A stretch of DNA of 64,000 bases, taken from Polyangiaceae bacterium. Its GTDB lineage: Bacteria > Myxococcota_A > Polyangia > Polyangiales > Polyangiaceae. Both the position numbers and the translations under genes were made by a program. Shown piece by piece: positions 14,901 through 64,000 of the stretch (the first letter of the stretch is position 1; each line of letters opens with the position of its first letter). The notes below the pieces were generated by a model. The model ran no database searches. It was not told the origin of the DNA and worked only from the letters and a program-made list of their open reading frames with translations. The stretch spans positions 136,466 to 200,465 of the forward strand of contig JADJRH010000002.1 of NCBI GenBank assembly GCA_016712345.1. Direction: 5' to 3'.

Positions 14901-14922
14901 CCGCGCACGGTACACTTCTCCC

Positions 14923-38226: not shown

Positions 38227-38379
38227 TCGAGTCCTGGACCTGGGCGGCGATGGTACCTTCTGTGCATGGACCATCCAAGAAGTTTCCCTTTGCGATCGGA
38301 GCGATCGCGAAATCTCAGGGAGCTTTGAGCCCACCGGCTGTGCTCCACAAAACACCCGGCCCGCTAATTTGGCCCTGCA

Positions 38380-41667: not shown

Positions 41668-41734
41668 GGCCGCCCCGCGGACTCACGCTTCGCAACGCGC
41701 CTGGCGCGCTTTTCCAACCGAACCGTCCATTTCA

Positions 41735-41895
41735 ACACGGAGTCACGGAGTACACAGAGGACACGGAGTTTCTTTGATTGTCGGGCCGCAATGGGTACAC
41801 AATAACCAACGTTCTCGACCTGACGCCGTGCAAGCCGATAGCAGCCTAAAGTACACAAAACTCCGTGAACCTCCGTGTCCTCCGTGCCTCCGTGT
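41735..41895 (+). mobile_element. MITE-like element copy C, flanked by CACGGAG-repeat terminal inverted repeats, between ftsK and the next gene
   Basis: Left end cacggagtcacggagtacacagaggacacggag. Right end ctccgtgaacctccgtgtcctccgtgcctccgtg, which is its reverse complement. The core is homologous to copy B. Confidence 0.65.
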
Positions 41896-41979
41896 TTCAT
41901 GCGACGTGTCAGATGCCCCGACGGTACAGGTCGTCGCGAGACGCTTCAGCCACCGAACTATTGAACGCGGCAGCGAAGC

Positions 41980-43494: not shown

Positions 43495-43555
43495 CCAAAA
43501 GCGTGCCGAGCTTGTAAAGGAAAATCGTCACAAGGCCTTTGACTTTCGGAACGCA

Positions 43556-43801
43556 ATGCTTCAAACACGACCCGTGATGCTTGCGGAAGAGCACCGCACG
43601 CGGCTTATTGGCGAAATTGCCAAAGTCCTTCAAGACGAGTGCATGCCTGACGACGCGCGCGCCGCGGGGCTCGTGCTCATCGGGTGGCTCGCGCGCCGCA
43701 TGCCCGGTGAAACGGCGCACGCCCTCGGCGTTGAAGAAATGCGCGCCGCCTGTGCCCACCGCCAAAACGGATCGCGCAGCGCCTCCAAAGCGTCTCGGTA
43801 A
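43556..43801 (+). CDS. Small hypothetical protein (81 aa), tentative
   Basis: An ATG-initiated ORF in the 500-bp gap before the Pro-rich protein gene. It looks protein-like, unlike the overlapping antisense ORFs. Confidence 0.3.
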   Translation: MLQTRPVMLAEEHRTRLIGEIAKVLQDECMPDDARAAGLVLIGWLARRMPGETAHALGVEEMRAACAHRQNGSRSASKASR

Positions 43802-44004
43802 GCCGGCTTCAACGGCGGTTCGCCTCGCCGTTTCTCCGAGCGACCCACCGTTCGTGTGTACACAAGAACCGCGCACTCCGCGCCGTTCAGTGCGCATCCC
43901 GGCCGAAACACCGCGTCCCGCCGGATCCAGCCGCAGCCCCCTCGCCCGAATACATTCGCAAAAAAGTCGGGTTGCCCGCGGGCCTGTGATACCAAGAAGC
44001 ACCG

Positions 44005-47517: not shown

Positions 47518-47584
47518 GGCTACCGGGTAGATTCTCGCAAGGCACTTTTCTGCTACACTGAGGAAGATCGAGGTAAGAAGCAGA

Positions 47585-47803
47585 ATGTTAGCAAACCTGG
47601 CCGAGGCCGCCTTGAAATGGCCCGACTTCGTGACTGCGGTTCTCCGCGGTGAAGCCGTTGAACTTGTGGGGGATGACGGTACAACCGTACGCCTCGTGCC
47701 CGAAGTGAAGCACGCGCCAAAATTCGGGAGTGCACGGGGGTTGATTGAAATGGCCGATGATTTCGACGCGCCGCTCGAAGACATGGCAGAGTACATGAAA
47801 TGA
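47585..47803 (+). CDS. vapB: Type II antitoxin VapB (DUF2281/YefM-like, DDFDAPLED tail)
   Basis: 72 aa with the C-terminal GSARGLIEMADDFDAPLED motif typical of antitoxins paired with PIN toxins. It overlaps vapC by 4 nt. Confidence 0.75.
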   Translation: MLANLAEAALKWPDFVTAVLRGEAVELVGDDGTTVRLVPEVKHAPKFGSARGLIEMADDFDAPLEDMAEYMK

Positions 47804-48186
47804 GGCTGCTGCTCGATACCCACGCTTTTCTTTGGTTCGTGGCAGGAAGCTCTCGCCTGTCAACGACGGCGCGCGCCGCCATTGAGGCCCGCGAAAATGA
47901 GCGATTTCTCAGTGCTGCGAGCATCTTCGAAATGGCCGTCAAGATGAGCTTGGGCAAGCTTACAGTTGGATTGCCCATCGAAGAGCTACTCGGTCGGGAG
48001 CTAGCATCGGGAGGCTTTGCGCTTTTGCCCATCGAGATCCGCCACGTCGGCCAACTCGCCTCGCTACCGTTTTACCACCGCGATCCATTTGACCGGTTGC
48101 TTGCAGCACAAGCCCTGGTCGACGCACTCATGTTCGTCAGCGCGGATGAGGCATTCGATTCCTACGGCGTTCAGCGACACTGGTGA
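47800..48186 (+). CDS. vapC: Type II toxin VapC (PIN-domain RNase)
   Basis: LLLDTHAFLWF (first acidic residue), a further conserved acidic position, and C-terminal DPFDRLLAAQA...SAD motifs of the PIN fold. 128 aa. Confidence 0.85.
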   Translation: MRLLLDTHAFLWFVAGSSRLSTTARAAIEARENERFLSAASIFEMAVKMSLGKLTVGLPIEELLGRELASGGFALLPIEIRHVGQLASLPFYHRDPFDRLLAAQALVDALMFVSADEAFDSYGVQRHW

Positions 48187-48201
48187 GTGTGTGAAGCGTA
48201 C

Positions 48202-50319
48202 TCAAGCCTGGGGAGATTGCACCTCTGACTCCAGCGACGCGCGTGCCCCAGTCAGGTCAAACAGCCTTGATACCTGAAGCTCGTTCAACTGCTCCGCCGG
48301 TAGACATGGCTCGAACTTAGAAAGCGCCGTTTTGGCGGCAGCCTGCGCCGATTCGCGCAGGTCATTGCTGTTGGGTCTACCCTGCTCCTGAAAGCCCCGC
48401 AGCGTTTGCCTAACAGCCACAAGGCTCTTCCCCGCCTCGTCCACCAATGTCAGGTGCGTATTGCGAGCAATCGCGCGCCCACCCAATGCGCGCTCCAACA
48501 TACGCCCCAGAAGTGTGTTGGCCGCGCCCCCGGCAAACGTCCACCAAGTGATTGAGTCTTTGTCACTCAGCAAGGTTCGCCCTTCGCGCAAAAAACCATG
48601 TTCCGCGCGGCTTGTGGCAAGCACTTTGCGAGCGCGTTGTGAGCACCACGGCGCCGTCTCATCACTGAGCAGCACCCGTTTTATCGCTTGGCACAGCTCG
48701 TATCCAAGAAACCTCGGCCCGCCCGACCAACGCGGCGCCCGCCCGTCTTTGGTGGGGCGCACAATACAAATCCCCCTCTCCCACTCAATGTGCACCACCT
48801 CCCAAGCTTGCCCTGCCAAAACGAACGTGCTGTCTTTCCCGGTGGCAGTGATGGTACGCAAAAATGTTGCGTCCACCACACCAATTTCGCGCGCGTCGGC
48901 TTTGACGGTGATCATTCGCGGCGCGTCGAATACCGCATAAAGTGCCTCGAAGTTGGCTCGGCCATACCGCTTTTCGCCTTCGGTCCCGAGCCAAATCTTA
49001 CCATCTTGGTTCGCCAGGATCGTTCGGTCCAACATGGTGTCAATCAGAGCTTCGCGCTCCGTCGCCGCAATGTCAGAAAAGGCCGAACTGCCCTCAAACC
49101 AACCGGCAATATCCCCTCGAACTACGCCTCGACGCTCTACCGCCAACCCCAAAATCTGATGCGCCAGAATGTGATGCGCCCTCCGCCAAGGCTGAACCGG
49201 TTCTACCCATCCCTCCTTGAAGAGCTGCAACAGCGCCGCCGATTGAAGTAAGGTCGCATCGGTGGTCGCCAAAAACGTGCAGTTCGGGGTGGTGCCTTCC
49301 CGCCGACCTGTTCTACCCATCCGCTGCAAAAACGCGGCAACCGTGGGTGGACTGTCAACCTGAAGCACGTGGTCGAGGTCACCCACATCAATCCCCAGCT
49401 CCAGCGCGCTGGTAGCTACAATGACGCAGTCTTTCCCGTCTTGAAAGGCCCGCTCGGCGTCGCGCCGTTCAGTTGCGCCGAGCGAACCATGGGAGACAAA
49501 CGTGGTAACCCCACCTTGCCTCAAAAGGTTGCCCAATTCTTCAGCCTTGCGCCGCGAGTCAACAAACGCGAGCCGCTTTTTTCCAGGGTGAAGTGCCCGC
49601 ACCAACGTGGCGGCGTTTTCAAGCGAGCCCACGTAGTCCAATGTCAAGTCAGGTTTTTTTCGAGCGCCGCCCGGGTCTACCATTTCACCCGGCCGCGTGG
49701 AGCTGCCTCGCATCCATTGCAAGATCTCCTCTGGATTACCCACCGTGGCTGACAGACCAATTCGCTGCACATCGCGGCCACAAAACCGCGTAAAACGCTC
49801 CAACAATGCCGACAAATGAGCGCCTCGATCATCCCCTGCAAACGCGTGAATCTCGTCGATCACCACGGCGCGCAAACCTGAAAAGAGCGCGCGCGCCGGA
49901 ACGTTGGGGCTGATGAGCATTGCCTCCAACGATTCAGGTGTGGTGAGGAGAATATCAGCCGGGCTGGCCACAAACCGCTTTTTTGCGCTCGCCGTCACAT
50001 CTCCATGCCACTTAAAAACCCGCCGCCCCAACACCGATGCGTACCTTTCAAGCCGTTGTTCTTGGTTGTTGAGCAGCGCGCGAATAGGGCAAAGGTAGAT
50101 CACCGAAACCGGCCGCCAGTCGCCCTCGTCCATGGCTGACAGCAACGGAAAAAATGCCGCTTCGGTTTTTCCGCCCGCTGTGGGCGCCAACACAACACAG
50201 TTTTTCCCATCTAAAATGGTTTCAATCGCCCGCTCTTGAACCGGCCGCAGCGAGTTAAACCCAAGGGTGTGCACCACCTGATATTGAAACGCCGGGGTGA
50301 GCCGATCAAACGCGGTCAT
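48202..50319 (-). CDS. brxHI: BREX helicase BrxHI (Lhr-like DExH helicase)
   Basis: LAPTAGGKTEAAFFPLL (motif I), VIDEIHAF (DExH), TSALELGIDVGD and QRMGRTGRR (motif VI). ATGA overlap with brxD. Confidence 0.85.
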   Translation of the reverse strand: MTAFDRLTPAFQYQVVHTLGFNSLRPVQERAIETILDGKNCVVLAPTAGGKTEAAFFPLLSAMDEGDWRPVSVIYLCPIRALLNNQEQRLERYASVLGRRVFKWHGDVTASAKKRFVASPADILLTTPESLEAMLISPNVPARALFSGLRAVVIDEIHAFAGDDRGAHLSALLERFTRFCGRDVQRIGLSATVGNPEEILQWMRGSSTRPGEMVDPGGARKKPDLTLDYVGSLENAATLVRALHPGKKRLAFVDSRRKAEELGNLLRQGGVTTFVSHGSLGATERRDAERAFQDGKDCVIVATSALELGIDVGDLDHVLQVDSPPTVAAFLQRMGRTGRREGTTPNCTFLATTDATLLQSAALLQLFKEGWVEPVQPWRRAHHILAHQILGLAVERRGVVRGDIAGWFEGSSAFSDIAATEREALIDTMLDRTILANQDGKIWLGTEGEKRYGRANFEALYAVFDAPRMITVKADAREIGVVDATFLRTITATGKDSTFVLAGQAWEVVHIEWERGICIVRPTKDGRAPRWSGGPRFLGYELCQAIKRVLLSDETAPWCSQRARKVLATSRAEHGFLREGRTLLSDKDSITWWTFAGGAANTLLGRMLERALGGRAIARNTHLTLVDEAGKSLVAVRQTLRGFQEQGRPNSNDLRESAQAAAKTALSKFEPCLPAEQLNELQVSRLFDLTGARASLESEVQSPQA

Positions 50320-51659
50320 TCGGAGGTAGACTTGGTGTCTTGGCCAAGGTCGATCTGAATTTCATCGGCCGACCGAGCGATCCCGGCGGCGGCGCGTTCT
50401 TGGTCGTTCATTTCGCTGGGATCCACCCCCAGTGCCCCGTGCACCTCCGGCTCAAACTCAGGGTGCTCATCGACTTGGTCGAGCAGCGCCACAAGCCGCC
50501 GTAGGTAGATTCGCGGGGCTACCCCCACCTTACCACCCAAAACGCCCGCCACCTTGGTTGCAAGCGCGCGAAGCACCGGATCGCCCACTTTGGACAAAAT
50601 TCTGTCTTTGGCATCTGACGGGTAGATTTCGCGAACACGCGCTCCCACCGTGACGAGCTTTTCTAAGTCAAACGGCAGGAGTCGAATTTGTGGGGCACGC
50701 GCACTGTCGAACTTGGGGTCGGCGGCAAATGGAGTTTGCAACCGTTCTGCGAGCGCGGGTGCGCGCTTGATCCCCTGCGGTCCGTCAAAAAAAAGCGGCG
50801 TACCTGTGATGAGCACATAAAGCCCCGGGTAACGTTCAGCCGCGAGATCATCAATGAGTTGGCGGAGCGCATTCAGGCTTTTTTCTCGGTTGTCGGCCCG
50901 CACACGCTGAATGGTTTCCACTTCGTCGAGCACCAGTAAAAGCCCCTTGCGCCCTGTCTGTTTCAGCACTTCCAACTGGCCTCGAAAAAAGCCGGCGGCG
51001 CTGTCATTGTCAAGGTCGCCTTTCAGGTTGGCAACCCGCAGCACTCCCGCGCCCACGTTGGGTTGCCCCATGAGCCACGCAATCAACCCCTCGGCCACGG
51101 CATTGTCGCCGCGAACACGTGCCCCATGACAAGCGCGCAACGCCGCTGAAAATTGCGGTTGCGTGGCGCTCACATGCCGCAGCCGCTTTTCTAAAACATC
51201 CCCCACCTCTTTCTCAACGGCCTCCACGTTGTTCGGGTCGAGCTGACCCTGACCGAGCACTTCTTCTTCGAGTTGAAAAAACCACCGGTCTACCAGCGAC
51301 CGAAATGCACCGTCGGCCCACTCTTTGGTTTGGAGTGCCTCCATGGCCCGCCGGTAGACGGTTTCCATTCTGTAGAGGGGCGTGTCCAATTCAGAGATCT
51401 GAACCACAGCCGTGGCAAAACCTCTCTCCAACGCCCGGTGTTCAAGCCAACGAGCAAAAAAGGTCTTCCCTGTTCCGTATTCGCCTCGAACAGCTTTGAA
51501 TTTACCTTTACCGGTGGCCACCGTTTCAAGTTCTTCATCAACGGCTTTTTCAAACCGTTCAAGCCCCACGGCAAACAATTCAAGCCCGCGCCGCGGCACC
51601 GTACCAATGCGCAGGGCGTCGATAATTTCTCTTCGTTTAAGCAGGCTCGGCCCTGTCAT
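50316..51659 (-). CDS. brxD: BREX ATPase BrxD
   Basis: 447 aa with Walker A GEYGTGKTFFA and Walker B LLVLDEVE. Size and position after pglZ match BrxD of type 2/6 BREX. ATGA overlaps with both neighbours. Confidence 0.75.
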   Translation of the reverse strand: MTGPSLLKRREIIDALRIGTVPRRGLELFAVGLERFEKAVDEELETVATGKGKFKAVRGEYGTGKTFFARWLEHRALERGFATAVVQISELDTPLYRMETVYRRAMEALQTKEWADGAFRSLVDRWFFQLEEEVLGQGQLDPNNVEAVEKEVGDVLEKRLRHVSATQPQFSAALRACHGARVRGDNAVAEGLIAWLMGQPNVGAGVLRVANLKGDLDNDSAAGFFRGQLEVLKQTGRKGLLLVLDEVETIQRVRADNREKSLNALRQLIDDLAAERYPGLYVLITGTPLFFDGPQGIKRAPALAERLQTPFAADPKFDSARAPQIRLLPFDLEKLVTVGARVREIYPSDAKDRILSKVGDPVLRALATKVAGVLGGKVGVAPRIYLRRLVALLDQVDEHPEFEPEVHGALGVDPSEMNDQERAAAGIARSADEIQIDLGQDTKSTSE

Positions 51660-54455
51660 TCAGCCACCTCGAATAGCAGCTTCAACTTGGCGCTGTCCAA
51701 TGTGACCTGCTGGGATACACTGTCAAACCGCACCACTTCATATCCATCGACATTCAGGGTTTCTTGCAGTTTGGCCACAAAGCCCGGTACCCGACGCGGC
51801 AGCAACTCCATTCGCGCGCCAAACGCCGCGCCGCTCGCTGAGCCGGCTTTTTCAAGCAAAAAGTCCACAGCCGACACCACCTCTTTGCGCCGCGCCGCGT
51901 CCGGGGCCCGCGCTTCGAGCACTTTGGATTTGGAAAATGCGGTGGCCGCCGCCGACGGCACGGGAGCCTTGGGTGGGGGAAGGGTAGGTCGCTTGGACGG
52001 CGTTTTGGTAGGTTCGGCCAAAGGCAGCAGCGTCAGTTGATTGGGGTTGGTCTTGGGAGGTTTTTGCGGGGTCGCCGGCGGAGTGGCAACAGCCTCGGTG
52101 GACTTGACGGATAGGTGCCAAAACGTGGGCACATACAGCGGTCGAATGGCAAGTGCTTCGTCTCCGCCCGGACCCTGTAAATCCTCGGCCCCGGCGAGCA
52201 CGCAGGGGGCCACAATTTCAGCGAGCGACGCACCTCCGTGTTCCCCGGCGTGCCCTGAACCTCCCCATCGAACGGTGTCGTCTACCATCAGCGCCACACC
52301 CCATGCCCCTTTGGGAGCCCAGGCCCGCCCGGCCGGAAACTTTACCTCAAAGTCTTCGATCGCCGTCTTTTCAGATGGCAATGGTCGCCACCGCGCCCCA
52401 CCGGAGATGCCCCCTTTGGACTCCAACAAGTCGGCAGGTACGTGCCCATGGTCCGCAGCAAAAAGCACAGCTCGTCCGCAGGCGCGCGCTTTTTCAAGCA
52501 GATCTGCGAGCGAAGCAATGTTGTCTACTCCCCACGGGTGCCTTGTTGCCGGGTTGCCTTTTAGAGAGTCATCAATGGAGTTGAGTACCACCGCCACCAC
52601 CCGCTGATCGGTGTCTTCGACAAGTCGAAGAGCCTCTTCGGTGGCCGCGCCGCCTTTGGTTTGACTCTCCGCGCGGAGCAGCAACGTGGGTGCGCTCGTG
52701 CCGGGAAAAAACTTGTGCATGACCTTGTTGTCACGAAAGCGCTCGCGGTCTTTTTGTGTATCTTCCACCTTGCCCGGTGTCGCTTGTCGACTTGCAAAAA
52801 AGGCCGTTCGGCTCACCTCGGTGATCGATGGTACAGCCGCCAATACCACCGGCACCAGACCCGATCCAATTCTACCCTTTTTTGTACCATGCCACGCGAG
52901 TTGACCCCACCCGCGTTGCGACAGGGAGTCAAATAGCTCCACCGCCTGCGCCCACGCCATTCCATCGAGTAACAGGATCAATAACCGTCTGTCAGGCGCC
53001 TCTTCCAAAAACCTACCTGCCACTCGCTCAAGTGCGCGGTCAATGGGTAAAACCGCATGGGCAGGTTGGCCTGTCGCTACCCATTCTGTCAGGGCCCGCG
53101 CAAATGTCCGGTCCATTGAACGGCGCAGCTCGTCGGCCGCCCGCACCACCGCTTGCACTCCCTGTCCAAACACAGTGTCGGTTGTTCCGCGCGCCGCTCG
53201 CCGCGCCCAGTCCACATACCCACCCTCTTGGGTATACCAGGTGCCCAGGGTTTCAACCGCATCGTGGGGAGATGTTCCCATGGGAAGGTGGGTTGGATGG
53301 GTAGACAGCCATGCCAGCAGCCGCACCGCCATCCAAGCCCGTTCCAAGTGACGTTCACTCCCGGCTTCGGCAGCGAGCGAGTGCCCATCCACCGATTGAA
53401 GCCGCCGCTCCGCGAGGCGAACAGCTTCCACCGAAGGCTGTTTGGCGCCTTCCAAAAGAGCTTGTCCCAACGCGGTTAACCTTGCTGTGAGCGACGAAGG
53501 CAGCCGCGTGCTTGGCTCAAGTGCGGCTCGAATTTCACTGTCATCCACCAAGTCTTCGGCACCGCGCACCGCAGCCCGAACCTCGGCCGCGCCCGCCTTT
53601 CGTTCAATGTAGCGCAGCGCGGCGCCCGCAGCGGTTCCAAGTGCGTTGGGTACCGCCGCAAGGGCAACTTCGTCCTTTAGACCGAGGTCCATTTTGAGCC
53701 GCTGCTTGATCCACATGCGCACCGCATCGCTCGGTGACGTGGTGAGCGCCTCAAACAAGATCGCATATTGCAAAAGGCGCGCGCCTTTACCCTGTTCCCA
53801 TGCGAGCCATGCCAAAGGTCCTGCCGGCCCCAGCGACCGACCGAGCCATGTCAGACACTCTTCGCGAACACCGGGTAGAGCGCCTGCCCCATCAAGAAAT
53901 GCCTTGCTTCGAAGGTCGAGCGCGGCCCAGGCGAGCAACGCATCAAGAGCCATCCCCCCTTCGGTATCCAGACCCAACTCCGTGCGCAACCATACAGTCC
54001 ACAGAAGGTCATGGGTAAGTCGCCCCTCGCGCACAGAGAGCCGCTTGTTCGCTGAAGGACGCAAAAGCCACGGCGCAAGCGCGCTCTTTTTGGCTTCAAT
54101 ATCCACCTCACCTACCCCAAACAAAACTTTGAGCCGCGCTTCAGTATCCACACGAATCACGCGGCCACGTCGAGCAAACCGGCCCGCCAAGTCGAGCGGC
54201 AGAGGTTCTGTCCACGGGACAAGGTAAACTGCCCACGGATCTTCTTTTTTCTAAAGGGGGAAGAAGCGACCGAAGCTCCAACTCACTCCGAACTGGAATC
54301 ACCTCCAGATCGGGCGCCTGACTCACCTTCAGCATCTGACAGTCGCCCGTTCCAAACACCGCAAACAGGTGGTGGGCTCGGTCGACCTCCAGACAGCGTC
54401 GAACGATCTCTTCTAAATCCCGCGCTTCAAGCCGAGGGAGATCGCTTTCGGTCAT
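51656..54455 (-). pseudogene. pglZ: BREX alkaline-phosphatase-family protein PglZ, split by a +1 frameshift in an A6 tract (T6 on the + strand at 54245-54250). The two reading frames are 54141-54455 and 51656-54250.
   Basis: The 844-aa ORF has PglZ motifs (LLLDGMAWAQ, FAADHGHV) but begins at a TTG. The 104-aa upstream ORF starts with an ATGA overlap onto pglY. Deleting one A makes ...LLPPLEKEDPWAVYLVPWTEP... a continuous ~932-aa PglZ. Confidence 0.8.
54245..54250 (-). repeat. Poly(A)6 homopolymer (coding strand) at the pglZ frameshift site
   Basis: cttcttttttctaaaggggg on the + strand. The frames switch exactly here. Confidence 0.8.
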
Positions 54456-57400
54456 GATTTACGCCTCCAAACGAGCCGAACCGAACCTACCATTTCTACA
54501 TCGTCTCCGGCCGCGGTCAGGGCTGACTTTACTTGATCTACCCATTGGGCCAAAGCCTCCTGCGAAGCTGCTTTCCCCTTGGCCTGTATGGGAAGATTTT
54601 TTTCTTCTGCTCCGATGGGTAGAGGTGCCACCGCCACCGAAACGCCGAGGCCGGCGCCCTTTGTCAAGTCGGGTTTCGGCTTGAGCAAAAGCAGTGCTTC
54701 TTTGGCGAGTTCGCGCACGCGCGGGCCTATCTTTTGGTGCAATTCATCTTGCCGAAGGGCCTGACCCAACCCGTCAAGCAATTCTTCCCCGCCCGCACCA
54801 TCAGGGCGACAGCGCACCTGGTCCAACGTCCCCCACCCAAGGTCGTCTTTGACCTCGCGCACCGCGTCGTCCGCACCGGCAAACGAGTCTGCCAACGCTC
54901 GACCGCTTGTTTTCGGCTCAAATGCGGCCAGTGTTTCGACCAGCGCTTTGCCCTTTTTTCCGGCCAGTTGAGCCGACAGATCGTCGCCGCTCCGCGCGGT
55001 GACAAGGCGATCGGGTTCACCCGCAATGCCCAGTTGAGCGAGGCGCTGCGCCAAGAGCCCTGGCAATTGCATGGCGGCGGTTTGTTTTGGCTTAAAATAA
55101 CCGACCACCAGCGCTTCAAGCTTTTTCAGGTTGTCCCCGTGAAGCGCCCGACCCGAAAGGGTGATCCCAAAATCGCCGGCGCGGTTTAACGCCGCCATCC
55201 ACATGGCATGGGTAGGTAGGTCAGGTTGTTCTAGCACCACATGGTCGGGAATCTCCTGCCCCGGTTTCACCTCGTAGGGTAGGTCACCCGTGAGCAGTGT
55301 GCGCGCCGACCACCGCGCGTAACACCGCACCACCAAGTCCAATGCGTCGTCCTGCAAACCGCGAGCGCCTGTGTCATCAATCCAAGAACGCACTTCACCC
55401 ACTTCGGGCCTTGCCAGCGCCTTTTTTTGGCGCAGATTTTCTAACCGTTGCAGAGTGTCGTCTTCGCGCAAAAAGGCTTTGTCTTCGGTCACGCGCACAA
55501 GCCCCAGCTCGCCCAAAAAGCCGCGCATCAGGTCAGCCGTTTCGCGGTCCACCGCAATGCTCTTGTCTTCTGAATCTACAATTTCACCAAACCGGGCAAC
55601 TAGCAATTCAACAATTGTTTTGGTGAGTTTTCTGGGGAACTTGGGGTGTAGCCTATACCGCGATGCGAGCAGCTCATCGGCATACCTATACACCGCGTCG
55701 CCCAACGTGGCCGCGAGTTGAAATCGCACCTGAACACCGGGTTTGAGCACATGCACGTGCGTTTCAACCGCGTTGGACAGGTCTAAATCGCCTTCACGCG
55801 GTTTTACCAATCCGTACGCTTGTTCTAACACCTGACGAATGCGGTTTTGTTTTTGCGCCTGAAGGTTGATAAGATTTGTCACCGCGCCTTCTTGTTGTTT
55901 GGGCGCCAAATGCGAAACGTATTGTCGCGTGGTCGCGCGGTCGCTCAAAATGTGCTCGAGCACCACAAGATCGCCAAGTACCCGCACCATTTCTTTTGAG
56001 AAAAAAGTGGGTAGCCAAACAATTGTCCACGTGCCCGCCGCGTGCCCTTGCAAAAAGGTGTCGAGCGTTTTTTCGTCGTCCCCCGGACCATACCCATCGT
56101 CGTCAAATGGGTAGTCCACAATCAGTCGAAAGTCGTGACCGGGCGGACACAAGAGCAGATCTGCCGACATTTTGCGCACATTTCCAAACCGCAGGTGACC
56201 GCACCGCGTGGTTCCGCGAAAGTCGTCGTGTTTGAGATCTTTGCCCCAGTCGGGTACACCCTCAATGCCCAACGCCTTAAAAAGAAGGTCTTTGAGCACG
56301 CGTTGCCGAGCGCTTGGAGTATCAAACTGCCGCGCCTGTTCTAGAATCGGCCCGGTTTCTACCCCGTCAATGTCCACCCGCACCGTCGGATCGGTTTGGA
56401 CGCCCACGTGCAGTTGAGCGATGTTACCGGTGCTCGCCCAGTTGCGAAGTTTTTGAGCAACAAGCGTCACTTCCGTCCCAGGGATGGGGGCGCGCAGCGA
56501 CCCGTGGTTGAGTTGAACCAACTTGCTCGCTGTCAGTTCTTTCAGGGCCGGCCGCTCAGAAATAAGCGCCGCGACAAGTAAGGTTTTGGCCAGTCGATTG
56601 TCGGCTCGACAAGCCCTTTCTGGGCAATTGGAGCACCCAATCCGAGCGGGGTGGTCGGGCCGCAACCGCTGGCACCTGTCGGGGCTTGTGGTGCCGTTCG
56701 CGTGTTGAATCACGGGTAGAAATTGATATGTGTAGAGCTGTTTGGCGGCATCAAACCGGGCGCGCATAATGCCATCGGTTGAGTCGTCGCCCCCGGCGAT
56801 CACATCAAACAGATCGCCCACCCCCACCACATCTCCCATTTGGAGATCTTCCACATGCTCCACAAGCAGCTCGGTCAACAGTCGAATGGCCGTGCGTTCG
56901 CGTTGGAGCGAACTTGAAAGCGCCACCAGCGCATCCATCAGCACCGGGCTAAATGGGTAGAGTCGCCGAAACTCTTTTTCATCCAACTCGCCCAGGAGAA
57001 GCTGCCACGCGTTGTCACCCAACTTGGCGCGCATGGTTTTAAACGCGTCGTCGAGGGCTTTTTTGGCCGCGTCCCCCTTGGGTTTTAGAATGCGCTTTTC
57101 AGCAATCGCGGGTAGGTTGCGATCTTCCAGCAGCAACGTGTCAAACCGGCCTTCTGACCATTTGAGCGAGTCGCGAACAAGGGCGTTTTGCATCCCTTCA
57201 TGATCGCGGCCCACCAGTTCTGCCAAGTCACGCTGCCGCGCAATAAAGCTGATAAACGGCACCTGACGGTGCGAGTCCTGCGCTTCAACAAGTTTGACAA
57301 CCTTTTGCACTTCAGTATGAAAAAAGGTGAGGTTCCCCACGTGGGTGGCGAGCCACAAAATCAACTCGTCCAAAAACAAAACCACCCCTTCATACCCAAG

Positions 57401-58168
57401 TGACTTGGCATGCCTCGCCAGGGTAGAAAGCCCTTCATCCAAATCAACGAACTGCCGGCTTTCGTCGGCAAAAGCACCAAAACGCGTGCGCACAAGAGCA
57501 TTAAACAACGCCTCGCGCTCGCGCGGATCTGTAGAGGCCGCCACCGCGTCAAACCGCGCGCGCGACCACAGATCTCCCTCCGCAATATCACCCCACCCGG
57601 CCGACTCTTTGCCCGCGTTCATGGGTTGAAAAAACCGTTCATCCCCCAGTTCGCCAAGCATGCGGCGCGCATCGTCAAACAACTTTTCATCCGCAAACAC
57701 ACCGGGTAGAGGCGCGTTGGGATGAAGCCGCTTCACCGTGTCGATGTATCTACCAAAAATGGCACTTTCGAGATTGCCGCCGTGACCAATCAGGTGAAAC
57801 CGCAGTTGAAGGAGCTTTGTGGTGCCGCAAAAACCATGTTTTTCACGCAAGACATGCAATTCTGGAATGCGCCATGCGTGCTCGTCGCCTTCGAGGAGGA
57901 GAGAAAGCAGCGCCATAAAGTGCGACTTGCCGCTGCCAAAACTACCCTGTAAAAACCCGGCCCGGCTTCGCCCGTCGCGCAGCGCGCCGCCCACCAAATC
58001 GAGCGATTTATGAAAGGCGCCCAGCAATGCGGGCGTGACAACGTACGTTTCAGCCGTGACCTTGGGTTGAGTGACAGCGCGTGACAACTCTTCCACAAAG
58101 CCGATTTTGTGAACCGACTGGGGAAGGTCAAACAGGTCTTTCACTCGGTTTTTAACGGGGGTAGCCAT
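54452..58168 (-). CDS. pglY: BREX P-loop ATPase PglY/BrxC (1238 aa)
   Basis: N-terminal GSFGSGKSHFMALL Walker A, as in BrxC/PglY. Size is typical at ~1200 aa. It sits 22 nt downstream of pglX with a GGAG Shine-Dalgarno. Confidence 0.85.
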   Translation of the reverse strand: MATPVKNRVKDLFDLPQSVHKIGFVEELSRAVTQPKVTAETYVVTPALLGAFHKSLDLVGGALRDGRSRAGFLQGSFGSGKSHFMALLSLLLEGDEHAWRIPELHVLREKHGFCGTTKLLQLRFHLIGHGGNLESAIFGRYIDTVKRLHPNAPLPGVFADEKLFDDARRMLGELGDERFFQPMNAGKESAGWGDIAEGDLWSRARFDAVAASTDPREREALFNALVRTRFGAFADESRQFVDLDEGLSTLARHAKSLGYEGVVLFLDELILWLATHVGNLTFFHTEVQKVVKLVEAQDSHRQVPFISFIARQRDLAELVGRDHEGMQNALVRDSLKWSEGRFDTLLLEDRNLPAIAEKRILKPKGDAAKKALDDAFKTMRAKLGDNAWQLLLGELDEKEFRRLYPFSPVLMDALVALSSSLQRERTAIRLLTELLVEHVEDLQMGDVVGVGDLFDVIAGGDDSTDGIMRARFDAAKQLYTYQFLPVIQHANGTTSPDRCQRLRPDHPARIGCSNCPERACRADNRLAKTLLVAALISERPALKELTASKLVQLNHGSLRAPIPGTEVTLVAQKLRNWASTGNIAQLHVGVQTDPTVRVDIDGVETGPILEQARQFDTPSARQRVLKDLLFKALGIEGVPDWGKDLKHDDFRGTTRCGHLRFGNVRKMSADLLLCPPGHDFRLIVDYPFDDDGYGPGDDEKTLDTFLQGHAAGTWTIVWLPTFFSKEMVRVLGDLVVLEHILSDRATTRQYVSHLAPKQQEGAVTNLINLQAQKQNRIRQVLEQAYGLVKPREGDLDLSNAVETHVHVLKPGVQVRFQLAATLGDAVYRYADELLASRYRLHPKFPRKLTKTIVELLVARFGEIVDSEDKSIAVDRETADLMRGFLGELGLVRVTEDKAFLREDDTLQRLENLRQKKALARPEVGEVRSWIDDTGARGLQDDALDLVVRCYARWSARTLLTGDLPYEVKPGQEIPDHVVLEQPDLPTHAMWMAALNRAGDFGITLSGRALHGDNLKKLEALVVGYFKPKQTAAMQLPGLLAQRLAQLGIAGEPDRLVTARSGDDLSAQLAGKKGKALVETLAAFEPKTSGRALADSFAGADDAVREVKDDLGWGTLDQVRCRPDGAGGEELLDGLGQALRQDELHQKIGPRVRELAKEALLLLKPKPDLTKGAGLGVSVAVAPLPIGAEEKNLPIQAKGKAASQEALAQWVDQVKSALTAAGDDVEMVGSVRLVWRRKS

Positions 58169-58189
58169 GGTACACTTGCTCCAACAACC

Positions 58190-61100
58190 TCAGGGGCTTT
58201 GTTCACCCTCAGGTTTGGTTTTTTTCTTGGCGGTTGGGCGCTTGGCTTTGCTTTTTTCAGCCGGTCGAAACGCTCGCAAGTCGTCGCGTGAAAGGCCGAG
58301 CGCGTGGCATTCACCGTCGAGAAACGTTTCGTAATAGTCGCCAAGGCGCAGCCCGCCAAACTCGGGGTTGGGGTCATTGTGCCATTGTTTTACCCACGGA
58401 ATCAGTTCAAGAAGGCCGGCAAGCATGGGTAGAAGCCGCTCTTTGGACCAGGCTTCACCGGTGCGGCGGTGTTGGTAGAGGGTGGCAAGGGCTTGCGCTT
58501 GTTGTTGGTGATTCCACCCCGCCCAGCCAAACACAGGTTCGCGGTCTTCGTCTGATTCGCAACCGGGGTAGCTGATAAAGCGCTCTTTTGGAACATCCAG
58601 TTTGCCTCGCAGGCGCCAAGTAGACGCGTCGCGATAATCGCCCTGGTCATATTTGGGCGGCGGGTCAAACGGGTTGACTTTTTCGCCGCGATCTTCGGCC
58701 CGCTGGAGATCCCATACCTTTTCCCAAACGGCGCGTTTTTCAAGGCCAGAAAGGGTGTGGCGGTAGGCGGCCAAAAAGGGCACCGATTCTCTTTCGATCA
58801 GACCGAACGCAAGTTCGCGGCCTTCAACATTGAGGTACTCGGAAACTGTATTCAGCGTTTGAGACTCTTCCCGAATGGCTTGGAGGATCTCCCTAAAAGG
58901 GACAGGTTCTGCGCGCTTTTGAGTTACCCTTTCGAGGTCGCTTGCGAGGTATTCCTCGCACCAATGTCGCACAACCTCACCACGAAACTCTGCCTGATCC
59001 ACGTTCTGCTCAGTGTCTCGCCATGCACGCTTATTGGTTCGCGATTCAAGCAATGCCAGTGAGGAGTGTAATGCAAGAGCGTCACGACCTTTCCACCAAT
59101 CGGGCACGCGTCCGACGACCGAACGCGTTTGTTCTGAACTTGTTCGCACTCGTTCAGACACCCCGCTCGCGTAGCCTGTACTCGCCTCGAAGGGCCGATC
59201 ACCCAGCGGGCATACCCAATTCCCGTCCGCCACGCTCGCGGAAACCGGCGCGTCAGTCAGTCCATACGCAACATAGATCATCCAGTCGATTTCTTCTTGG
59301 ATGCATGCACAACGCGCCGTCAACTCATCGAACCTGCGCCATTCGCGATTAACCGTCTCACGCAGTGTGTCGGCAGACTTCCAAGCGTCAGGTGCGTCAA
59401 TCAAAACACCTCCTGAAAGCCATTTGGAACGGGCAGTCGCTGCTTCCGTGAGCGACCTTGCAAGCATTGCCATTGCGCTGGCATTCTGGGGCGGTATTGG
59501 CATTGATTCCAACGCGGTGCCCGCAAACTCATACGCCGCCCGAGCGGGATCTGTGGTGTGCTTTTGCGAGGCGTTGGTCTTGTTGTGGCAGACTTGTTTC
59601 ATCCAGAAACAAGCGGTGGAGCTGTTGAGGTAGGCGAGCAATGCCAGGTGATCGTCTTCGGTGGCGTCTTCTTTGAGCTTGATAATCGGCGCCGAACGGT
59701 TGAACACCTTCCCACCCCGATCGAGCACAAAATGATTGTGTGTGGCGACAAACGCGAACGTGATCGTGAGCGGCGTCCGCAGCTTGGCAGCTGTCAATCG
59801 ACCAAATTCATACCACGCCAAACCGCCTTCAACCTTGGTTTTGCCGCCAAAAAGCTTGTTATTTGATAGGTTCGTGCGGTGCGGCCACAGTACCTTGAGA
59901 GCGTCGTCCTTGGGGCTAATGAGCCGAAAATCTGGAAAATAAGGGAACAAAGCCGTTTCCACCTCGCCAACAGTCCAATCCCGAATGGCTTCACCGATCA
60001 CCATCGGCCGCGTGAATGGTCGCGAGGCCCCGGTACGGTCCCAAACCTGACGGGGTCGGATATAGACATCGTCCTCCAAGGTGAAGGATGCGATTCCGAT
60101 GCTGTCCACGAGGTCACCCAATCTGCATTGGGCCCGCTCTTCCAACAACTCTTTCAACTCCGCCGCCCCTCCTCCACCCAAACTCCACGGATGTTTTGAC
60201 AACGTGGTTTTGGGCACCCGCGCCACGCTGATGAAGTCGTTTTCAAACTCAACTTCCTCCCCGTGGTCCGCTATACTCCTCCACACCAAACCCTGTTCAG
60301 GATCCTGCGGGGTTGATGGTTCACCGCGTTTGGCCAACACCGCAAGCACATCGCTCGCCTGCTGCGGCTCGTGGGTTCCCAACAAAATGACGGTGGGTGT
60401 ACCATGCCCTGGAATGTACGCGCCCGATGTATTGACAACCCCATCTAAGTTGACAGTGGGGAGAAACTGTTCAATCAGCTTTTTACCAAACTCTCGCTTC
60501 ATAAAGGAGTTCGCCGTGATCATCCCCACAAACCCACCCTGTTTGGCGAGTTGAAAAAAGCGCTCGGTAAACGGCGCCCCAAGCGAATATTTCCCAGCGG
60601 CGGAGCGAGGGTACATCTCTCTGTACCGCTCCCGCAAATAGGCATCTTTCACCGTGATATACGGTGGGTTGCCCACCACCACCGTGAACTTCCTGTGCAG
60701 CACATCGCGGGCCGCCTGCTCATCTTCCAGGGCAAATGCCTCACCTTCCCACGTGGCAAGTTGTTGACCTGACAACTCACCCAGTTTGATTTGGGAGTGT
60801 TGCGGGTTGTGGAGGAGTGAATCGGCAACCACCAGGTGTAAGGGGAGAGCGGGAGCCAGCGAAAGCCTTGTGTACCCCCCTTTTTCGAGAAATGCGAGTG
60901 TCAGACGAAAACGCGCAATCGCCACCGCGTACGGGTTAATGTCACACCCAAACACCGCATCGAGCGCTTTCTGCGCGGCATGGCGAACGTCCAACCCCGG
61001 CTCGGTGCGCTGGCGATGGTCGAGCAGGCGCTCAAACGCGCCGAGCAAAAAGTGGCCGCTGCCGCAGGTAGGGTCAATCAAAGTGGTTTGGTCCAACCCA

Positions 61101-61810
61101 AACCGCCGGATGGAAGGCTCCAACGTGCGGTCGAGAATGTACCGTTCCACAAACGAAGGGGTTTGGAGCAGCGCAAACCGCTCGCGCACATCGGAAGAAA
61201 GGTCTTGGTAGAGGTCGCCCAAAAACCGGGTGTCGGCCTGACCAAACCTGAATGCCGGTGTTTCAGCATGCGGCGAGCGAAACAGGGCCACGAGCTTTTT
61301 GGCCATTGCGGCAGAAGGGCCGAGCATCCACACCGGGTTGTGGCGCGCATCAAACAAGTCTTCAGCGGCGGGTAGGCGCGACAATTCTCGAAACACGGTG
61401 AGCAGGTATTCACGCTCGGTGAGGGAGGGCGCGATCTGAAAAAAGAGGCGCTGGCTGTCTTCTGCCCCCGGTCCCGCAATGCGGTTGTGTCCGAGTAGAC
61501 CCCGATCTTCCAACGTGCGAACAAACACACACGACAAGAGCCAGCTCGCAGCCACTTGGGTCACAAAGTGGCGCTCCCACACTTCAAGCGGGTCGGCGGT
61601 GCGGCGCGCCGCACGTTCGGTCTCGTGCCGTTCACGCAGAGAGGTGCGTACACCGGCGGAAGATCGGGCGCGCGAAAGAAGGTCGGCCTCCAATTCAGTG
61701 AGCACGGCCTGCGCTTTGGTAAGAAACAAGGCCGAGTCGAGCGCCGCAGTGGGGTTGGACTGGGGGGCCAGGTCTACCGTGGAAGGTTTTTTTCTAGGGG
61801 CCATGGTCAA
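58190..61810 (-). CDS. pglX: BREX N6-adenine DNA methyltransferase PglX (1206 aa)
   Basis: VVGNPPYITVKDAY (NPPY motif IV) and GSGHFLLGAFERL (SAM motif I). Size is typical at ~1200 aa. Start is TTG at 61810 or ATG at 61804, directly after the pglW stop. An A7 tract occupies codons 4-6. Confidence 0.9.
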   Translation of the reverse strand: MTMAPRKKPSTVDLAPQSNPTAALDSALFLTKAQAVLTELEADLLSRARSSAGVRTSLRERHETERAARRTADPLEVWERHFVTQVAASWLLSCVFVRTLEDRGLLGHNRIAGPGAEDSQRLFFQIAPSLTEREYLLTVFRELSRLPAAEDLFDARHNPVWMLGPSAAMAKKLVALFRSPHAETPAFRFGQADTRFLGDLYQDLSSDVRERFALLQTPSFVERYILDRTLEPSIRRFGLDQTTLIDPTCGSGHFLLGAFERLLDHRQRTEPGLDVRHAAQKALDAVFGCDINPYAVAIARFRLTLAFLEKGGYTRLSLAPALPLHLVVADSLLHNPQHSQIKLGELSGQQLATWEGEAFALEDEQAARDVLHRKFTVVVGNPPYITVKDAYLRERYREMYPRSAAGKYSLGAPFTERFFQLAKQGGFVGMITANSFMKREFGKKLIEQFLPTVNLDGVVNTSGAYIPGHGTPTVILLGTHEPQQASDVLAVLAKRGEPSTPQDPEQGLVWRSIADHGEEVEFENDFISVARVPKTTLSKHPWSLGGGGAAELKELLEERAQCRLGDLVDSIGIASFTLEDDVYIRPRQVWDRTGASRPFTRPMVIGEAIRDWTVGEVETALFPYFPDFRLISPKDDALKVLWPHRTNLSNNKLFGGKTKVEGGLAWYEFGRLTAAKLRTPLTITFAFVATHNHFVLDRGGKVFNRSAPIIKLKEDATEDDHLALLAYLNSSTACFWMKQVCHNKTNASQKHTTDPARAAYEFAGTALESMPIPPQNASAMAMLARSLTEAATARSKWLSGGVLIDAPDAWKSADTLRETVNREWRRFDELTARCACIQEEIDWMIYVAYGLTDAPVSASVADGNWVCPLGDRPFEASTGYASGVSERVRTSSEQTRSVVGRVPDWWKGRDALALHSSLALLESRTNKRAWRDTEQNVDQAEFRGEVVRHWCEEYLASDLERVTQKRAEPVPFREILQAIREESQTLNTVSEYLNVEGRELAFGLIERESVPFLAAYRHTLSGLEKRAVWEKVWDLQRAEDRGEKVNPFDPPPKYDQGDYRDASTWRLRGKLDVPKERFISYPGCESDEDREPVFGWAGWNHQQQAQALATLYQHRRTGEAWSKERLLPMLAGLLELIPWVKQWHNDPNPEFGGLRLGDYYETFLDGECHALGLSRDDLRAFRPAEKSKAKRPTAKKKTKPEGEQSP
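61787..61793 (-). repeat. Poly(A)7 tract (coding strand) 10 nt into pglX (MAPRKKPS)
   Basis: ggaaggtttttttctagggg on the + strand. Confidence 0.8.
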
Positions 61811-64000
61811 GCGGCTGCGTTGTGGCGGTTACTCATCCACGCGGCCGAGACCCAAAGAGTCTGACCGGGTAAGATGCCGGGTATAGTAAAGGTGCCTTCA
61901 ATGCGAGGCACGGCCAAGGTGTCGTGCACAGGCACAAGCAAAAACAGGGGCTGCGTTTCACGTTTGGAAGCGGTGGAGACGAGTCGAGTGACAAAATCCA
62001 CCAGATTGTACCGCGCAATGGGGCCGGGCTGTACCAATAAGAGCGGGCGCGGATGTGTACACAATCGAGGGAGCAGCGCGTCGGCGGCGAGCGACACCAA
62101 CTTTTTCAACTTGCTCCAGTGAGGGCCTGTTGGGCCTTCACGGTCGGCAGAAAACACCACATCGTCGGAGGGGATGTTGGCTTTTTTGCGCTGGGTTTCT
62201 ACTTCACGCGCCAATTCTAAATCAAGGGCCAAAAGGTCGGCCCCAAGGCGTTCTTGCAAGTCTAACGCGGCTTGACGCGCGCGATCGGCCCGAACACCCA
62301 ACACTCGAAACGCGTTCATCTCCAGGGCGTGTTTCAGGCGTTCGTCAAACTGGCGAGCGTCAATAGCATCGGCATCCATGGCGCGCGGTTGGGTAGGAAG
62401 GGCGGTGCGCGCTCGAATCAGCGAAGAGATGGTGGAGGTCTGAAGGGAGGTGGCGTTTTGTTCTTCAGGCCGTTCAAACTGGTTTGTTGAAGCCACCCAC
62501 GTAAACCCAATGGGCGCAAGCAGCGCGTCTAAGTCTGGTCGGGTAGGCAGGGGCGCGGCGTGGGGATAACGCAGCGCCACGCGGCTTTTCACGTCAACTT
62601 CGGTAACGCCGCCTTTGAACGTGGCGGCACACAACTCAACTGCGCGGCGAGCTTCCAACCCGCGTGGGTAGATCTCCATACGGGCCGAACATGCGGCGTT
62701 TGCACTCGCAGCGGTGGCCAAAGCAAAAAGGCGCTCGTCTTTGGCCGTTGCAAGCGGAGTATTCGCCACTATTTCGTCAAACACCCGGCGGGCTTCGCCC
62801 GGCGACGCCAGGGTAGGTCGCTTTGCGAGCGCATCGGCCGCGGCGCCGAGCGCGCGCACCCAACGTGCGTACTCTTCCGAAAGAAACATCCACGGGTCGC
62901 GGTCATTCAACCTCAGCCATCGCAGCCCTGTGGGCGTGTCTTTGTCGGTTTCAGCAACAATGCGAAATAGGGCCGCTGCTTTGGCCAACACCAGGGCAGG
63001 GGAAACGTCGGTTCCATGGGGAAGAGTGCGGGCCAACTCTTCAGAAAGCGTCACGAGATGGGCGGCTCCACCCGCCGATTCTACAAGAGTGGTAAGGCGC
63101 TCGCGTAGCTCACTCAGGGCTTTGTGAGAGGCCCAATCTTCCCTCGCTTTGCTCTGCGCGATGTACACAGCCGGAAGGGTTTTGTTTTCTGCCGTGGCCA
63201 CTTCACGCACGGTCACATCAAGCCGGCCCTGAAACGGCGCGTCGAGCCCCAAAAGCGCGCGAACAAGGTGGCGATCTTTTTTCCCCTTTTTTTGAGGCAA
63301 AAGCGCTTCTACCCATCCTTCAAGTGTGGTGGGGTGAGCGCGTTGATTGGCTCGCTCGTTTTCATCGGCAAGTGCGGTGCGCAGCTGCAATGGGTCAAAC
63401 CGGTGGCGCTCCGCCAGGTTTTTTACCTGCGTTTCGGGGGTGAAAGCGAGAGCGCGCAGAGTGGGTAGACCGCTGTCAACAAGGGCATCAGACAAAGCGG
63501 GGTTGAGTCCCAACGTCCCAACAGGCCGATCTTCACCTCCATAGCCGGGGAAAAACGGCGCGAGAGGCGTCTCGGTCAGAGTTCGAACGTGCATCCACGT
63601 GTCGCGCAGGTGAAAGATCTCCTTGGCAACATGCCTTCCAACCCCGCGGATGGCGCTCAAACGGTTGGGGCTCAGGCCGGGGAGATCGCGCATGCGCGTG
63701 AGGCCGGCTCGGTCGAGCGCATTGCGCGCGCGGTTGGAAAGTGGAAGGGTGGCAACGGGCGTATCCGGGTCGATCTGAGCGATCTGTTCTTCAGTAAGAA
63801 CCGATTCACCCGGTGAATCATCGGCCTGGACAATGGGTAGATCGGCCGCAGGGGCGGGTAGAACGGGGGGTGAAACCTCGGCAGGGGTTTGTAACGGCGG
63901 TGGAGGGGTTGCCGCGATTTTGGGGCGCAACGAGCGCGCGGGGGCACCCACAACCGACAGCCAGGCGAGGCGCATGTCGTGGGCAGAGGCAAAGCGGTCC
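61807..64000 (-). CDS. pglW: 5'-partial gene at the window edge, best explained as the C-terminal ~730 aa of the BREX type 2 kinase PglW (Pro-rich linker, RpoA-CTD-like helix-hairpin-helix, C-terminal domain). No kinase domain lies within the window.
   Basis: The frame is open to position 64000. PPPPLQTPAEVSPPVLPAPA linker, then LPLSNRARNALDRAGLTRMRDLPGLSPNRLSAIRGVGRHVAKEI (HhH). Position is immediately upstream of pglX with a 4-nt overlap. The PglW identity is inferred from gene order alone. Confidence 0.5.
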   Translation of the reverse strand, partial: DRFASAHDMRLAWLSVVGAPARSLRPKIAATPPPPLQTPAEVSPPVLPAPAADLPIVQADDSPGESVLTEEQIAQIDPDTPVATLPLSNRARNALDRAGLTRMRDLPGLSPNRLSAIRGVGRHVAKEIFHLRDTWMHVRTLTETPLAPFFPGYGGEDRPVGTLGLNPALSDALVDSGLPTLRALAFTPETQVKNLAERHRFDPLQLRTALADENERANQRAHPTTLEGWVEALLPQKKGKKDRHLVRALLGLDAPFQGRLDVTVREVATAENKTLPAVYIAQSKAREDWASHKALSELRERLTTLVESAGGAAHLVTLSEELARTLPHGTDVSPALVLAKAAALFRIVAETDKDTPTGLRWLRLNDRDPWMFLSEEYARWVRALGAAADALAKRPTLASPGEARRVFDEIVANTPLATAKDERLFALATAASANAACSARMEIYPRGLEARRAVELCAATFKGGVTEVDVKSRVALRYPHAAPLPTRPDLDALLAPIGFTWVASTNQFERPEEQNATSLQTSTISSLIRARTALPTQPRAMDADAIDARQFDERLKHALEMNAFRVLGVRADRARQAALDLQERLGADLLALDLELAREVETQRKKANIPSDDVVFSADREGPTGPHWSKLKKLVSLAADALLPRLCTHPRPLLLVQPGPIARYNLVDFVTRLVSTASKRETQPLFLLVPVHDTLAVPRIEGTFTIPGILPGQTLWVSAAWMSNRHNAAA

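Follow-up and report, generated by a model that had tools for sequence, protein, structure and literature searches.

A type 2 BREX (Pgl-type) operon with a frameshifted pglZ gene in a Polyangiaceae metagenome-assembled genome

The 64,000-nucleotide stretch of contig JADJRH010000002.1 analysed here (the window) carries at its end a bacteriophage exclusion (BREX) operon, in which the pglZ gene is deposited in two reading frames. In the open reading frame (ORF) map of the 44-64 kb region, the operon spans 48202-64000 and consists of six same-direction genes on the minus strand, in the order pglW-pglX-pglY-pglZ-brxD-brxHI:

61807-64000, minus strand: 3' half of pglW, 730 codons; the frame runs without a stop through base 63999
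58190-61804, minus strand: pglX, BREX-2 N6-adenine DNA methyltransferase, 1204 amino acids by the ATG chosen by NCBI (MBK8255147.1, identical)
54452-58168, minus strand: pglY (brxC-like), P-loop ATPase of 1238 amino acids (MBK8255146.1, 'hypothetical protein' at NCBI)
51656-54455, minus strand: pglZ, BREX-2 protein of the PglZ phosphatase family, ~931 amino acids after repair; deposited in two frames
54245-54250, minus strand (T6 on the plus strand): A6 homopolymer at which the pglZ frame changes, from the reading of the sequence and the alignment to relatives
50316-51659, minus strand: brxD, ORC/Cdc6-type AAA+ ATPase, 447 amino acids (MBK8255143.1, named BrxD by NCBI)
48202-50319, minus strand: brxHI, Lhr-like DExH (DEIH) superfamily 2 helicase, 705 amino acids

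The junctions are tight, with ATGA overlaps between brxD and brxHI, pglZ and brxD, and pglY and pglZ, the TGA of pglW located 2 nt ahead of the pglX ATG, and a spacing of 21 nt between pglX and pglY. The ORF map thus bears out the gene order and the close packing described in the first-pass annotation, which had been made from the letters of the window alone. The intergenic spaces leave no room for any extra ORF, and there is no separate brxA, brxB or brxL in the window portion of the operon; the region upstream of pglW lies beyond the window. By exact sequence match, the window proteins are MBK8255140-MBK8255147 of a record labelled 'MAG: Polyangiaceae bacterium' (MAG, metagenome-assembled genome), with locus tags IPK82_, on a contig of 738,087 bp, in agreement with the myxobacterial host that had been proposed. 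The names 'BREX-2 system adenine-specific DNA-methyltransferase PglX' and BrxD are already present in this record.

Searches of each protein against PADLOC and other profile hidden Markov models matched BREX models for all six products (BrxHI, BrxD, PglZ, BrxC/PglY, PglX and PglW in PADLOC). With the NCBIfam BREX-2 models, BrxD, PglZ and PglX score above the cut-off, whereas PglY and the PglW fragment remain under it. PglX scores 1311 bits with PADLOC (E = 0) and 1205 bits with NCBIfam BREX_2_MTaseX (cut-off 400), contains the Pfam domains Eco57I, MmeI_Mtase and N6_Mtase together with a C-terminal DUF7008, and carries the methyltransferase motifs I (DPTCGSGHF) and IV (NPPY); an alternative TTG start would extend the gene to 58190-61810 and the protein to 1206 amino acids. 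BrxD is matched by PADLOC (E = 1.6e-178), NCBIfam BREX_BrxD (581 bits, cut-off 350) and Pfam BrxC_BrxD (E = 1.4e-129), and displays the motif GTGKT. BrxHI covers the whole PADLOC BrxHI profile (E = 8.3e-280), consists of the Pfam DEAD and Helicase_C domains with the motifs AGGKT, DEIH, SAT and QRMGRTGR, and finds its top NCBIfam matches among the Lhr-type DEXH helicases, none of which reaches its cut-off. PglY aligns with positions 5-1226 of the 1240 in the PADLOC BrxC-PglY profile (1105 bits, E = 0), has a Walker A motif GSGKS and a Walker B motif LFLDE, and occupies a place between pglX and pglZ that is kept in relatives. The NCBI label 'hypothetical protein' on PglY stems from its score of 725 bits with the NCBIfam PglY model, under the cut-off of 1700, a threshold that appears to be tuned to actinobacterial sequences. 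Motifs and profiles agree with the NPPY methyltransferase, the GSGKS ATPase, the 447-residue BrxD and the Lhr-like DExH helicase recognized in the first-pass annotation.

From these PADLOC and NCBIfam profiles, together with the gene order in related loci described below, the region is typed as a type 2 BREX (Pgl-type) operon; this assignment, already made in the first-pass annotation, is fully supported. BREX types 1, 5 and 6 were ruled out by profile scores and gene content: the NCBIfam PglX models of these types score just 26-68 bits against the 1205 bits of the type 2 model. The operon shares with BREX type 1 (brxA-brxB-brxC-pglX-pglZ-brxL) the core of BrxC/PglY, PglX and PglZ and, presumably, a methylation-based logic of self/non-self discrimination, but differs from it in the absence of separate brxA, brxB and brxL genes, in the X-then-Y order, and in the presence of PglW, BrxD and BrxHI.

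Related loci were obtained by scanning one genome per GTDB species, a set of genomes without the contig of this MAG, with a PglX profile. At least 595 stretches matched, and the 80 best loci were retained; the related-locus set comprises 83 loci (denoted by L numbers, ~1.5 Mb in total) and was mapped by tblastn. The order NERD-kinase, PglW C-terminal part, PglX, PglY, PglZ, BrxD, BrxHI holds throughout the mapped loci, 24 of the 83 contain every part within the fetched DNA, and 60 contain the kinase, PglW C-terminal and PglX parts.

The portion of pglW inside the window, listed in the ORF map as 61807-63975 and onward, encodes the last ~12 residues of a kinase domain, a Pro-rich linker, a HhH domain resembling the C-terminal domain of the RNA polymerase alpha subunit, and the C-terminal region. 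It matches positions 783-1398 of the 1403 in the PADLOC PglW profile (E = 1.6e-99) and positions 754-1391 of the 1391 in NCBIfam BREX_PglW (309 bits). The HhH domain, which had been noticed previously in a large upstream protein, corresponds to Pfam RNA_pol_A_CTD (E = 1.4e-7). The 5' half, which in relatives encodes the NERD domain and tandem kinase domains over ~750 codons, lies beyond the window. PglW is a single ORF of 1384-1834 amino acids in 57 of the 63 related loci that hold both halves; each of the three Polyangia-clade PglW proteins that were scanned contains NERD, two kinase-like domains and RNA_pol_A_CTD, and one of the three passes the NCBIfam PglW cut-off (1014 bits versus 990). 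The window fragment aligns to relatives from its residue 2 onward, with residues 2-13 falling at the end of the Pkinase match of L018. Because the relatives carry NERD and kinase domains fused to the C-terminal part of PglW and the fragment aligns into a Pkinase match, the kinase half of this PglW, judged from relatives rather than read, is very probably present. In the other six of the 63 loci (L001, 7445-12232; L003, 1580-5913; L002, L053, L081 and L082), pglW is found in two ORFs, one for the NERD-kinase part and one for the C-terminal part. These splits are likely to be frameshift artefacts and not a real two-gene variant: five of the six look like low-coverage (L001-L003) or long-read (L053 and L081) assemblies, a judgement drawn from the record names in the case of L001, L053 and L081 and more tentative for L002 and L003.

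The first-pass annotation took pglZ to encode one product, whereas the gene is actually deposited in two frames that switch at the A6 run. An ORF of 104 amino acids (54141-54455) represents the N-terminus and an ORF of 844 amino acids (51656-54190) represents the rest, the combined reading consisting of the first 69 codons from the ATG at 54455 followed by the frame of the longer ORF. Removal of one A from the run gives ...PPLEKEDPWAVYLVPW... at the junction, and the resulting protein reads ...RSELELRSLLPPLEKEDPWAVYLVPW..., without a gap across the junction when aligned with 11 relatives (for example, PPLEDADPHLVFLVPW), which read PPLEDADPH or PPLEATDPK at this position. The homopolymer is missing in all eight relatives inspected at the nucleotide level. 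The main ORF on its own matches NCBIfam BREX_PglZ_2 over profile positions 86-890 only (447 bits, cut-off 200) and PADLOC PglZ over positions 98-908 (E = 5.7e-118). The repaired PglZ of 931 amino acids keeps 40 of the 42 alignment columns that show at least 95% conservation among 42 homologues, including DG, T544, DHGH and HGG. To judge how good the assembly is, the window was also searched for a second frameshift; the one candidate, 14887-16242/16239-18518, is an ordinary ATGA-overlapping gene pair.

On PglX similarity, the operon is placed in a Polyangia-dominated clade of type 2 systems. The top matches, 59-67% identical, come from metagenome contigs, Sorangium, and MAGs labelled Polyangiaceae or 'Deltaproteobacteria'. 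Among the best 80 of at least 595 matches, PglX of the Myxococcota-labelled loci (Polyangiaceae, Sorangium, Sandaracinaceae and Kofleriaceae) is 45-67% identical to that of the window, with three more distant loci, from two Sorangium cellulosum strains and one Polyangiales MAG, at 41-43%; PglX of the Actinomycetota loci is 41-42% identical. Sorangium and several Polyangiaceae MAGs already have a BREX-2 PglX annotated at NCBI, and a published alignment of type 2 PglW takes in Myxococcales, Stigmatella and Sorangium sequences. Outside the Myxococcota, a Lacunisphaera sp. of the Verrucomicrobiota (L016, 5580-23510) has a complete type 2 BREX with a PglX 55% identical to that of the window, as close as many Polyangia copies, which suggests a transfer between phyla, either out of or into the Polyangia clade.

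In the relatives, the pglX-pglY junction is a hotspot for cargo, with a gap of more than 400 nt in ~40 of 62 loci and of up to 7.9 kb. The cargo includes SIR2 with HerA, two GmrSD-type nucleases, AAA_21/AAA_15 (OLD/AbiEii-like) ATPases and a ParA-like NTPase, and is located in the following pglX-pglY gaps of relatives, among others:

L004, 13555-17514
L012, 11110-16572
L073, 4180-7622
L072, 13540-16847
L054, 13651-16491
L040, 13666-17066

On the side of brxHI, the operon is flanked by a toxin-antitoxin pair:

47585-48186, plus strand: vapBC-type pair, DUF2281 antitoxin (47585-47803, 72 amino acids) and PIN toxin (47800-48186), with an ATGA overlap

This vapBC, reported in the first-pass annotation and confirmed by the overlapping ORFs, the Pfam PIN match (E = 2.1e-13) and the NCBI names (MBK8255140 and MBK8255141, a DUF2281 protein and a VapC family toxin), is convergent with brxHI, lies outside the BREX genes, and matches no PADLOC model.

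The idea of a foreign operon was originally backed by three compositional arguments, of which a single one survives. The contrast in the content of guanine and cytosine (GC), given as 55-57% against 62-68%, was overstated: the operon has 58.4%, the rest of the window 59.9% and bases 1-34000 58.1%, and only 34001-48201 reaches 64.0%. The CTA codons for Leu are not distinctive either, making up 4.5% of the Leu codons of the operon compared with 3.9% for nine other long ORFs. The scarcity of the palindromic octamer GTGTACAC in the operon, in contrast, is real. This octamer occurs 25 times in the window compared with 0.28 copies expected from dinucleotide-preserving shuffles, mostly within ORFs and without shared flanks, and appears to be a highly iterated palindrome of the HIP1 kind, specific to the lineage of this Polyangiaceae genome; the 83 related loci (~1.5 Mb) contain zero copies. 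Twenty-four of the sites lie in 7181-47479 and one at 62055, that is, 24 in 1-48201 and one in the 15.8-kb operon, where ~7.9 would be expected (Poisson P(<=1) = 0.0034); the flanks carry 0.50 copies per kb, the operon 0.06. Variants with one mismatch are ~4-fold rarer in the operon as well (0.32 versus 1.18 per kb), whereas those with two mismatches are equally frequent. This depletion suggests that the operon, and perhaps vapBC too, has spent less time in this genome than the flanks, but it does not point to an actinobacterial donor.

The best joint explanation, held with somewhat more confidence than doubt, is that the locus is a chromosomal type 2 BREX of a clade common in Polyangia, that the pglZ frameshift is an assembly error and the system intact, and that the operon arrived later than its flanks, probably from a myxobacterial donor. 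Taken separately, the frameshift most likely reflects an indel error at a homopolymer in an assembly of the long-read style, and the BREX system is judged, from its sequence, to be intact in the organism. Indels in homopolymers are the kind of error that typically persists in long-read MAGs; here one base of a homopolymer is affected and no other lesion is visible in the 15.8 kb, in favour of an artefact or a very recent change. Both the 738-kb source contig, of a size typical of long-read MAG assemblies, and the split pglW genes in several relatives with record names of the low-coverage or long-read type provide further hints toward an indel artefact. An assembly error is favoured also because Streptomyces coelicolor does not tolerate a pglZ null when its pglX is wild-type, the survivors bearing pglX mutations in the form of G-tract changes (PMC4365076), and pglX is intact here. 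The operon was aptly called nearly intact in the first-pass annotation, which, however, did not spot its real lesion. Several observations speak against this explanation. The frameshift is in the deposited assembly, where the 104-residue ORF is the coding sequence MBK8255145.1, and is compatible with a sequencing error as well as with a real mutation; the IPK-prefixed MAGs presumably come from a Nanopore-based activated-sludge study. The kinase-bearing N-terminal half of pglW lies outside the window, and a homology search of a collection of 5.8 billion proteins did not find the full-length PglW of this MAG (best match 60% identical), although seven neighbours from the same contig are there. 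Because the full-length protein is missing while its neighbours are present, pglW may have been flagged at NCBI as a pseudogene, and the operon would then carry a second lesion. Finally, given the other gaps in its distribution, the octamer-free stretch is only moderately significant; bases 1-7180 are also devoid of GTGTACAC.

Some of these points are equally those of a serious, if distinctly less probable, alternative, namely, that a genuine type 2 operon is either turned off or in decay, with a real 1-nt insertion in pglZ and possibly a lesion in the off-window part of pglW. PglZ would then be produced only in truncated form, from an internal start, or not at all. The two separate coding sequences called by NCBI and the missing full-length PglW, which fits a pseudogene call, are what such decay would leave, and there are precedents for it: Pgl of S. 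coelicolor is switched off at high frequency by changes in homopolymer length, there of a G tract in pglX (PMC4365076), and loss or truncation of BREX components is common, with PglW detected in only ~80% of the type 2 taxa (PMC12839542). Decay, however, sits poorly with a pglZ that otherwise looks fully conserved (40 of 42 columns), with the intact state and the catalytic motifs of the remaining operon genes in the window, and with the intolerance of pglZ loss next to an intact pglX in S. coelicolor; a run of six A is short for a phase-variation tract, no homopolymer exists at the site in relatives, and indels of this kind are usual in long-read MAGs. It is improbable that the frameshift is both genuine and used, whether as an on/off switch, the pglZ counterpart of the phase variation of the Streptomyces pglX G tract, or as +1 recoding that sets the dose of PglZ. 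A programmed +1 slip at GAA-AAA-AGA-AGA, whereby tRNA-Lys would re-pair from AAA to the overlapping AAA while a rare AGA waits in the A site, yielding full-length PglZ in a set ratio to the 104-residue N-terminal product, is still harder to credit. Recoding is formally possible because AGA is rare, accounting for 2.5% of the Arg codons in 14 long ORFs of the window, with two AGA codons following the slippery AAA_A, and the product of the slip would be exactly ...PPLEKEDPW..., gap-free with relatives. Yet the tandem AGA is merely the out-of-frame reading of GAA-GAT, the site lacks conservation (no frameshift in any of the 11 aligned relatives, no homopolymer in any of the eight inspected), the zero frame continues for 33 codons past the site, and no stimulatory element was seen, although no search for one was made.

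With regard to origin, acquisition of the operon, or its replacement by recombination, probably postdates the flanks, and the donor probably was another genome without the GTGTACAC bias of this host, a myxobacterium rather than an actinobacterium. A recent import from Actinobacteria within a multi-system defence island, the framing of the first-pass annotation, is very unlikely. Type 2 BREX is indeed mainly actinobacterial, as had been stated, with 1039 of 1309 taxa among the actinomycetes (PMC12839542), the octamer is scarce with its one copy in the operon, and a vapBC pair abuts it. The donor part of this framing is, however, already contradicted by the PglX identities (~41-42% for Actinomycetota versus 45-67% for Polyangia), and the GC content and the use of Leu codons are those of the host. 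The marks of an island are not seen either: there are no tRNA genes across the window, no meaningful direct or inverted repeats in a search for island boundaries in 44000-64000, and no integrase or transposase domain among the ORFs scanned with Pfam, a scan that covered the 36 large non-operon ORFs except six (stop-to-stop, 104-278 amino acids, within 1-33320). PADLOC detected no second defence system in eight larger ORFs elsewhere in the window (771-43491), where it gave generic hits to Ser/Thr kinase domains only. With no second system in these ORFs and no PADLOC match for vapBC, the locus lacks the appearance of a defence island made up of several systems. More generally, the view of the operon as an exotic import is weakly supported, because its nearest relatives are from Polyangia, BREX-2 is already annotated in Polyangia, the published alignment includes Myxococcales, and no second system accompanies it.

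By analogy with the roles described in PMC4365076 and PMC12839542, the system of this uncultured bacterium would work as follows. PglX would methylate adenine at N6 in a short host-specific motif and so mark self DNA, and the core of PglX, the PglY/BrxC ATPase and PglZ would detect unmethylated incoming DNA and block phage replication, with PglZ also holding back a toxic activity of PglX. PglW, with a NERD nuclease domain, a pseudokinase and an active Ser/Thr kinase, and DNA-binding and inactive STAND domains, may act as a sensor and as a signalling or back-up effector. The ORC/Cdc6-like BrxD would probably serve to load or activate BrxHI, a helicase-loader role that has been proposed for it (PMC12839542). 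The kinase activity of PglW and the ATPase activity of PglY are required in S. coelicolor (PMC4365076), and the C-terminal half of PglW has been proposed to provide BrxA-like and BrxB-like modules (PMC12839542).

Compared with the Pgl system of the S. coelicolor type, the operon has the six components and their order in common, as well as the type 2 profile matches for PglX, PglZ, PglY, PglW, BrxD and BrxHI, and its PglX NPPY and PglY Walker A motifs are among the features that matter in S. coelicolor (PMC4365076). It differs in its host, a member of the Myxococcota, and in the sequence of PglX, ~41% identical to the actinobacterial proteins; in the arrangement of the six genes in one co-directional, overlapping array; and in its homopolymer lesion, which affects pglZ, whereas pglX lacks a G tract of the phase-variation type. 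The annotated BREX-2 systems of Polyangia, such as those of Sorangium sp. So ce590 and So ce1153, S. cellulosum So ceGT47 and So ce26, and several Polyangiaceae, Sandaracinaceae and Kofleriaceae MAGs, show the same architecture, with PglX 45-67% identical, and the closest of them encode PglW as one protein of ~1450 amino acids. Between pglX and pglY, many of these systems have 1-8 kb of cargo (such as SIR2-HerA or AAA_21 ATPases), in contrast to the 21 nt found here, and the frameshift in pglZ sets the window copy apart from the annotated ones.

Elsewhere in the window, the GC-rich stretch of 34-48 kb (64.0%) abounds in genes for Pro/Ala-rich low-complexity proteins. One of these, at 44005-47517 on the plus strand, encodes a Pro/Ala-rich low-complexity protein of 1170 amino acids with in-frame tandem repeats of 21, 33-36 and 69 nt (at 45655-45810 and 46459-46603) and no Pfam domain, and is the source of much of the high GC content beside the operon. 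The plus-strand genes 14887-16242 and 16239-18518 overlap by ATGA and code for an AAA_16/NACHT-like NTPase and a TPR protein of 759 amino acids, without a PADLOC match; the pair resembles a split STAND NTPase, and there is no frameshift in it. Genes of a typical myxobacterial signalling repertoire are a Ser/Thr kinase of 1313 amino acids with AAA_16 and TPR regions (768-4709, minus strand), a second Ser/Thr kinase (6414-8147, plus strand) and an FHA-domain sigma-54 activator (8870-10684, plus strand). The PADLOC hits to the kinase domain (PD-T4-6, mad6) are strong, yet generic, and are not to be taken as defence systems.

The operon represents biology that is already known and already annotated, and only the pglZ frameshift and the host octamer deserve mention. 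For databases, the case indicates that the NCBI PglY cut-off of 1700 bits leaves clear PglY proteins labelled as 'hypothetical', and that the homopolymer-split pglZ should be treated as suspect in censuses of defence systems that use this record. For this genome, a low frequency of the host octamer could serve as a simple means to date insertions. The single case matters little, but it confirms that type 2 BREX extends beyond the Actinobacteria: the type is common in Polyangia and occurs also in loci labelled as at least eight other phyla, a spread that public annotation and a 2026 survey already document. Should the frameshift at the A6 run turn out, against expectation, to be in use, this would mean a type 2 BREX in a myxobacterium that tolerates or regulates the loss of full-length PglZ with pglX intact, contrary to the toxin-antitoxin model from S. 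coelicolor.

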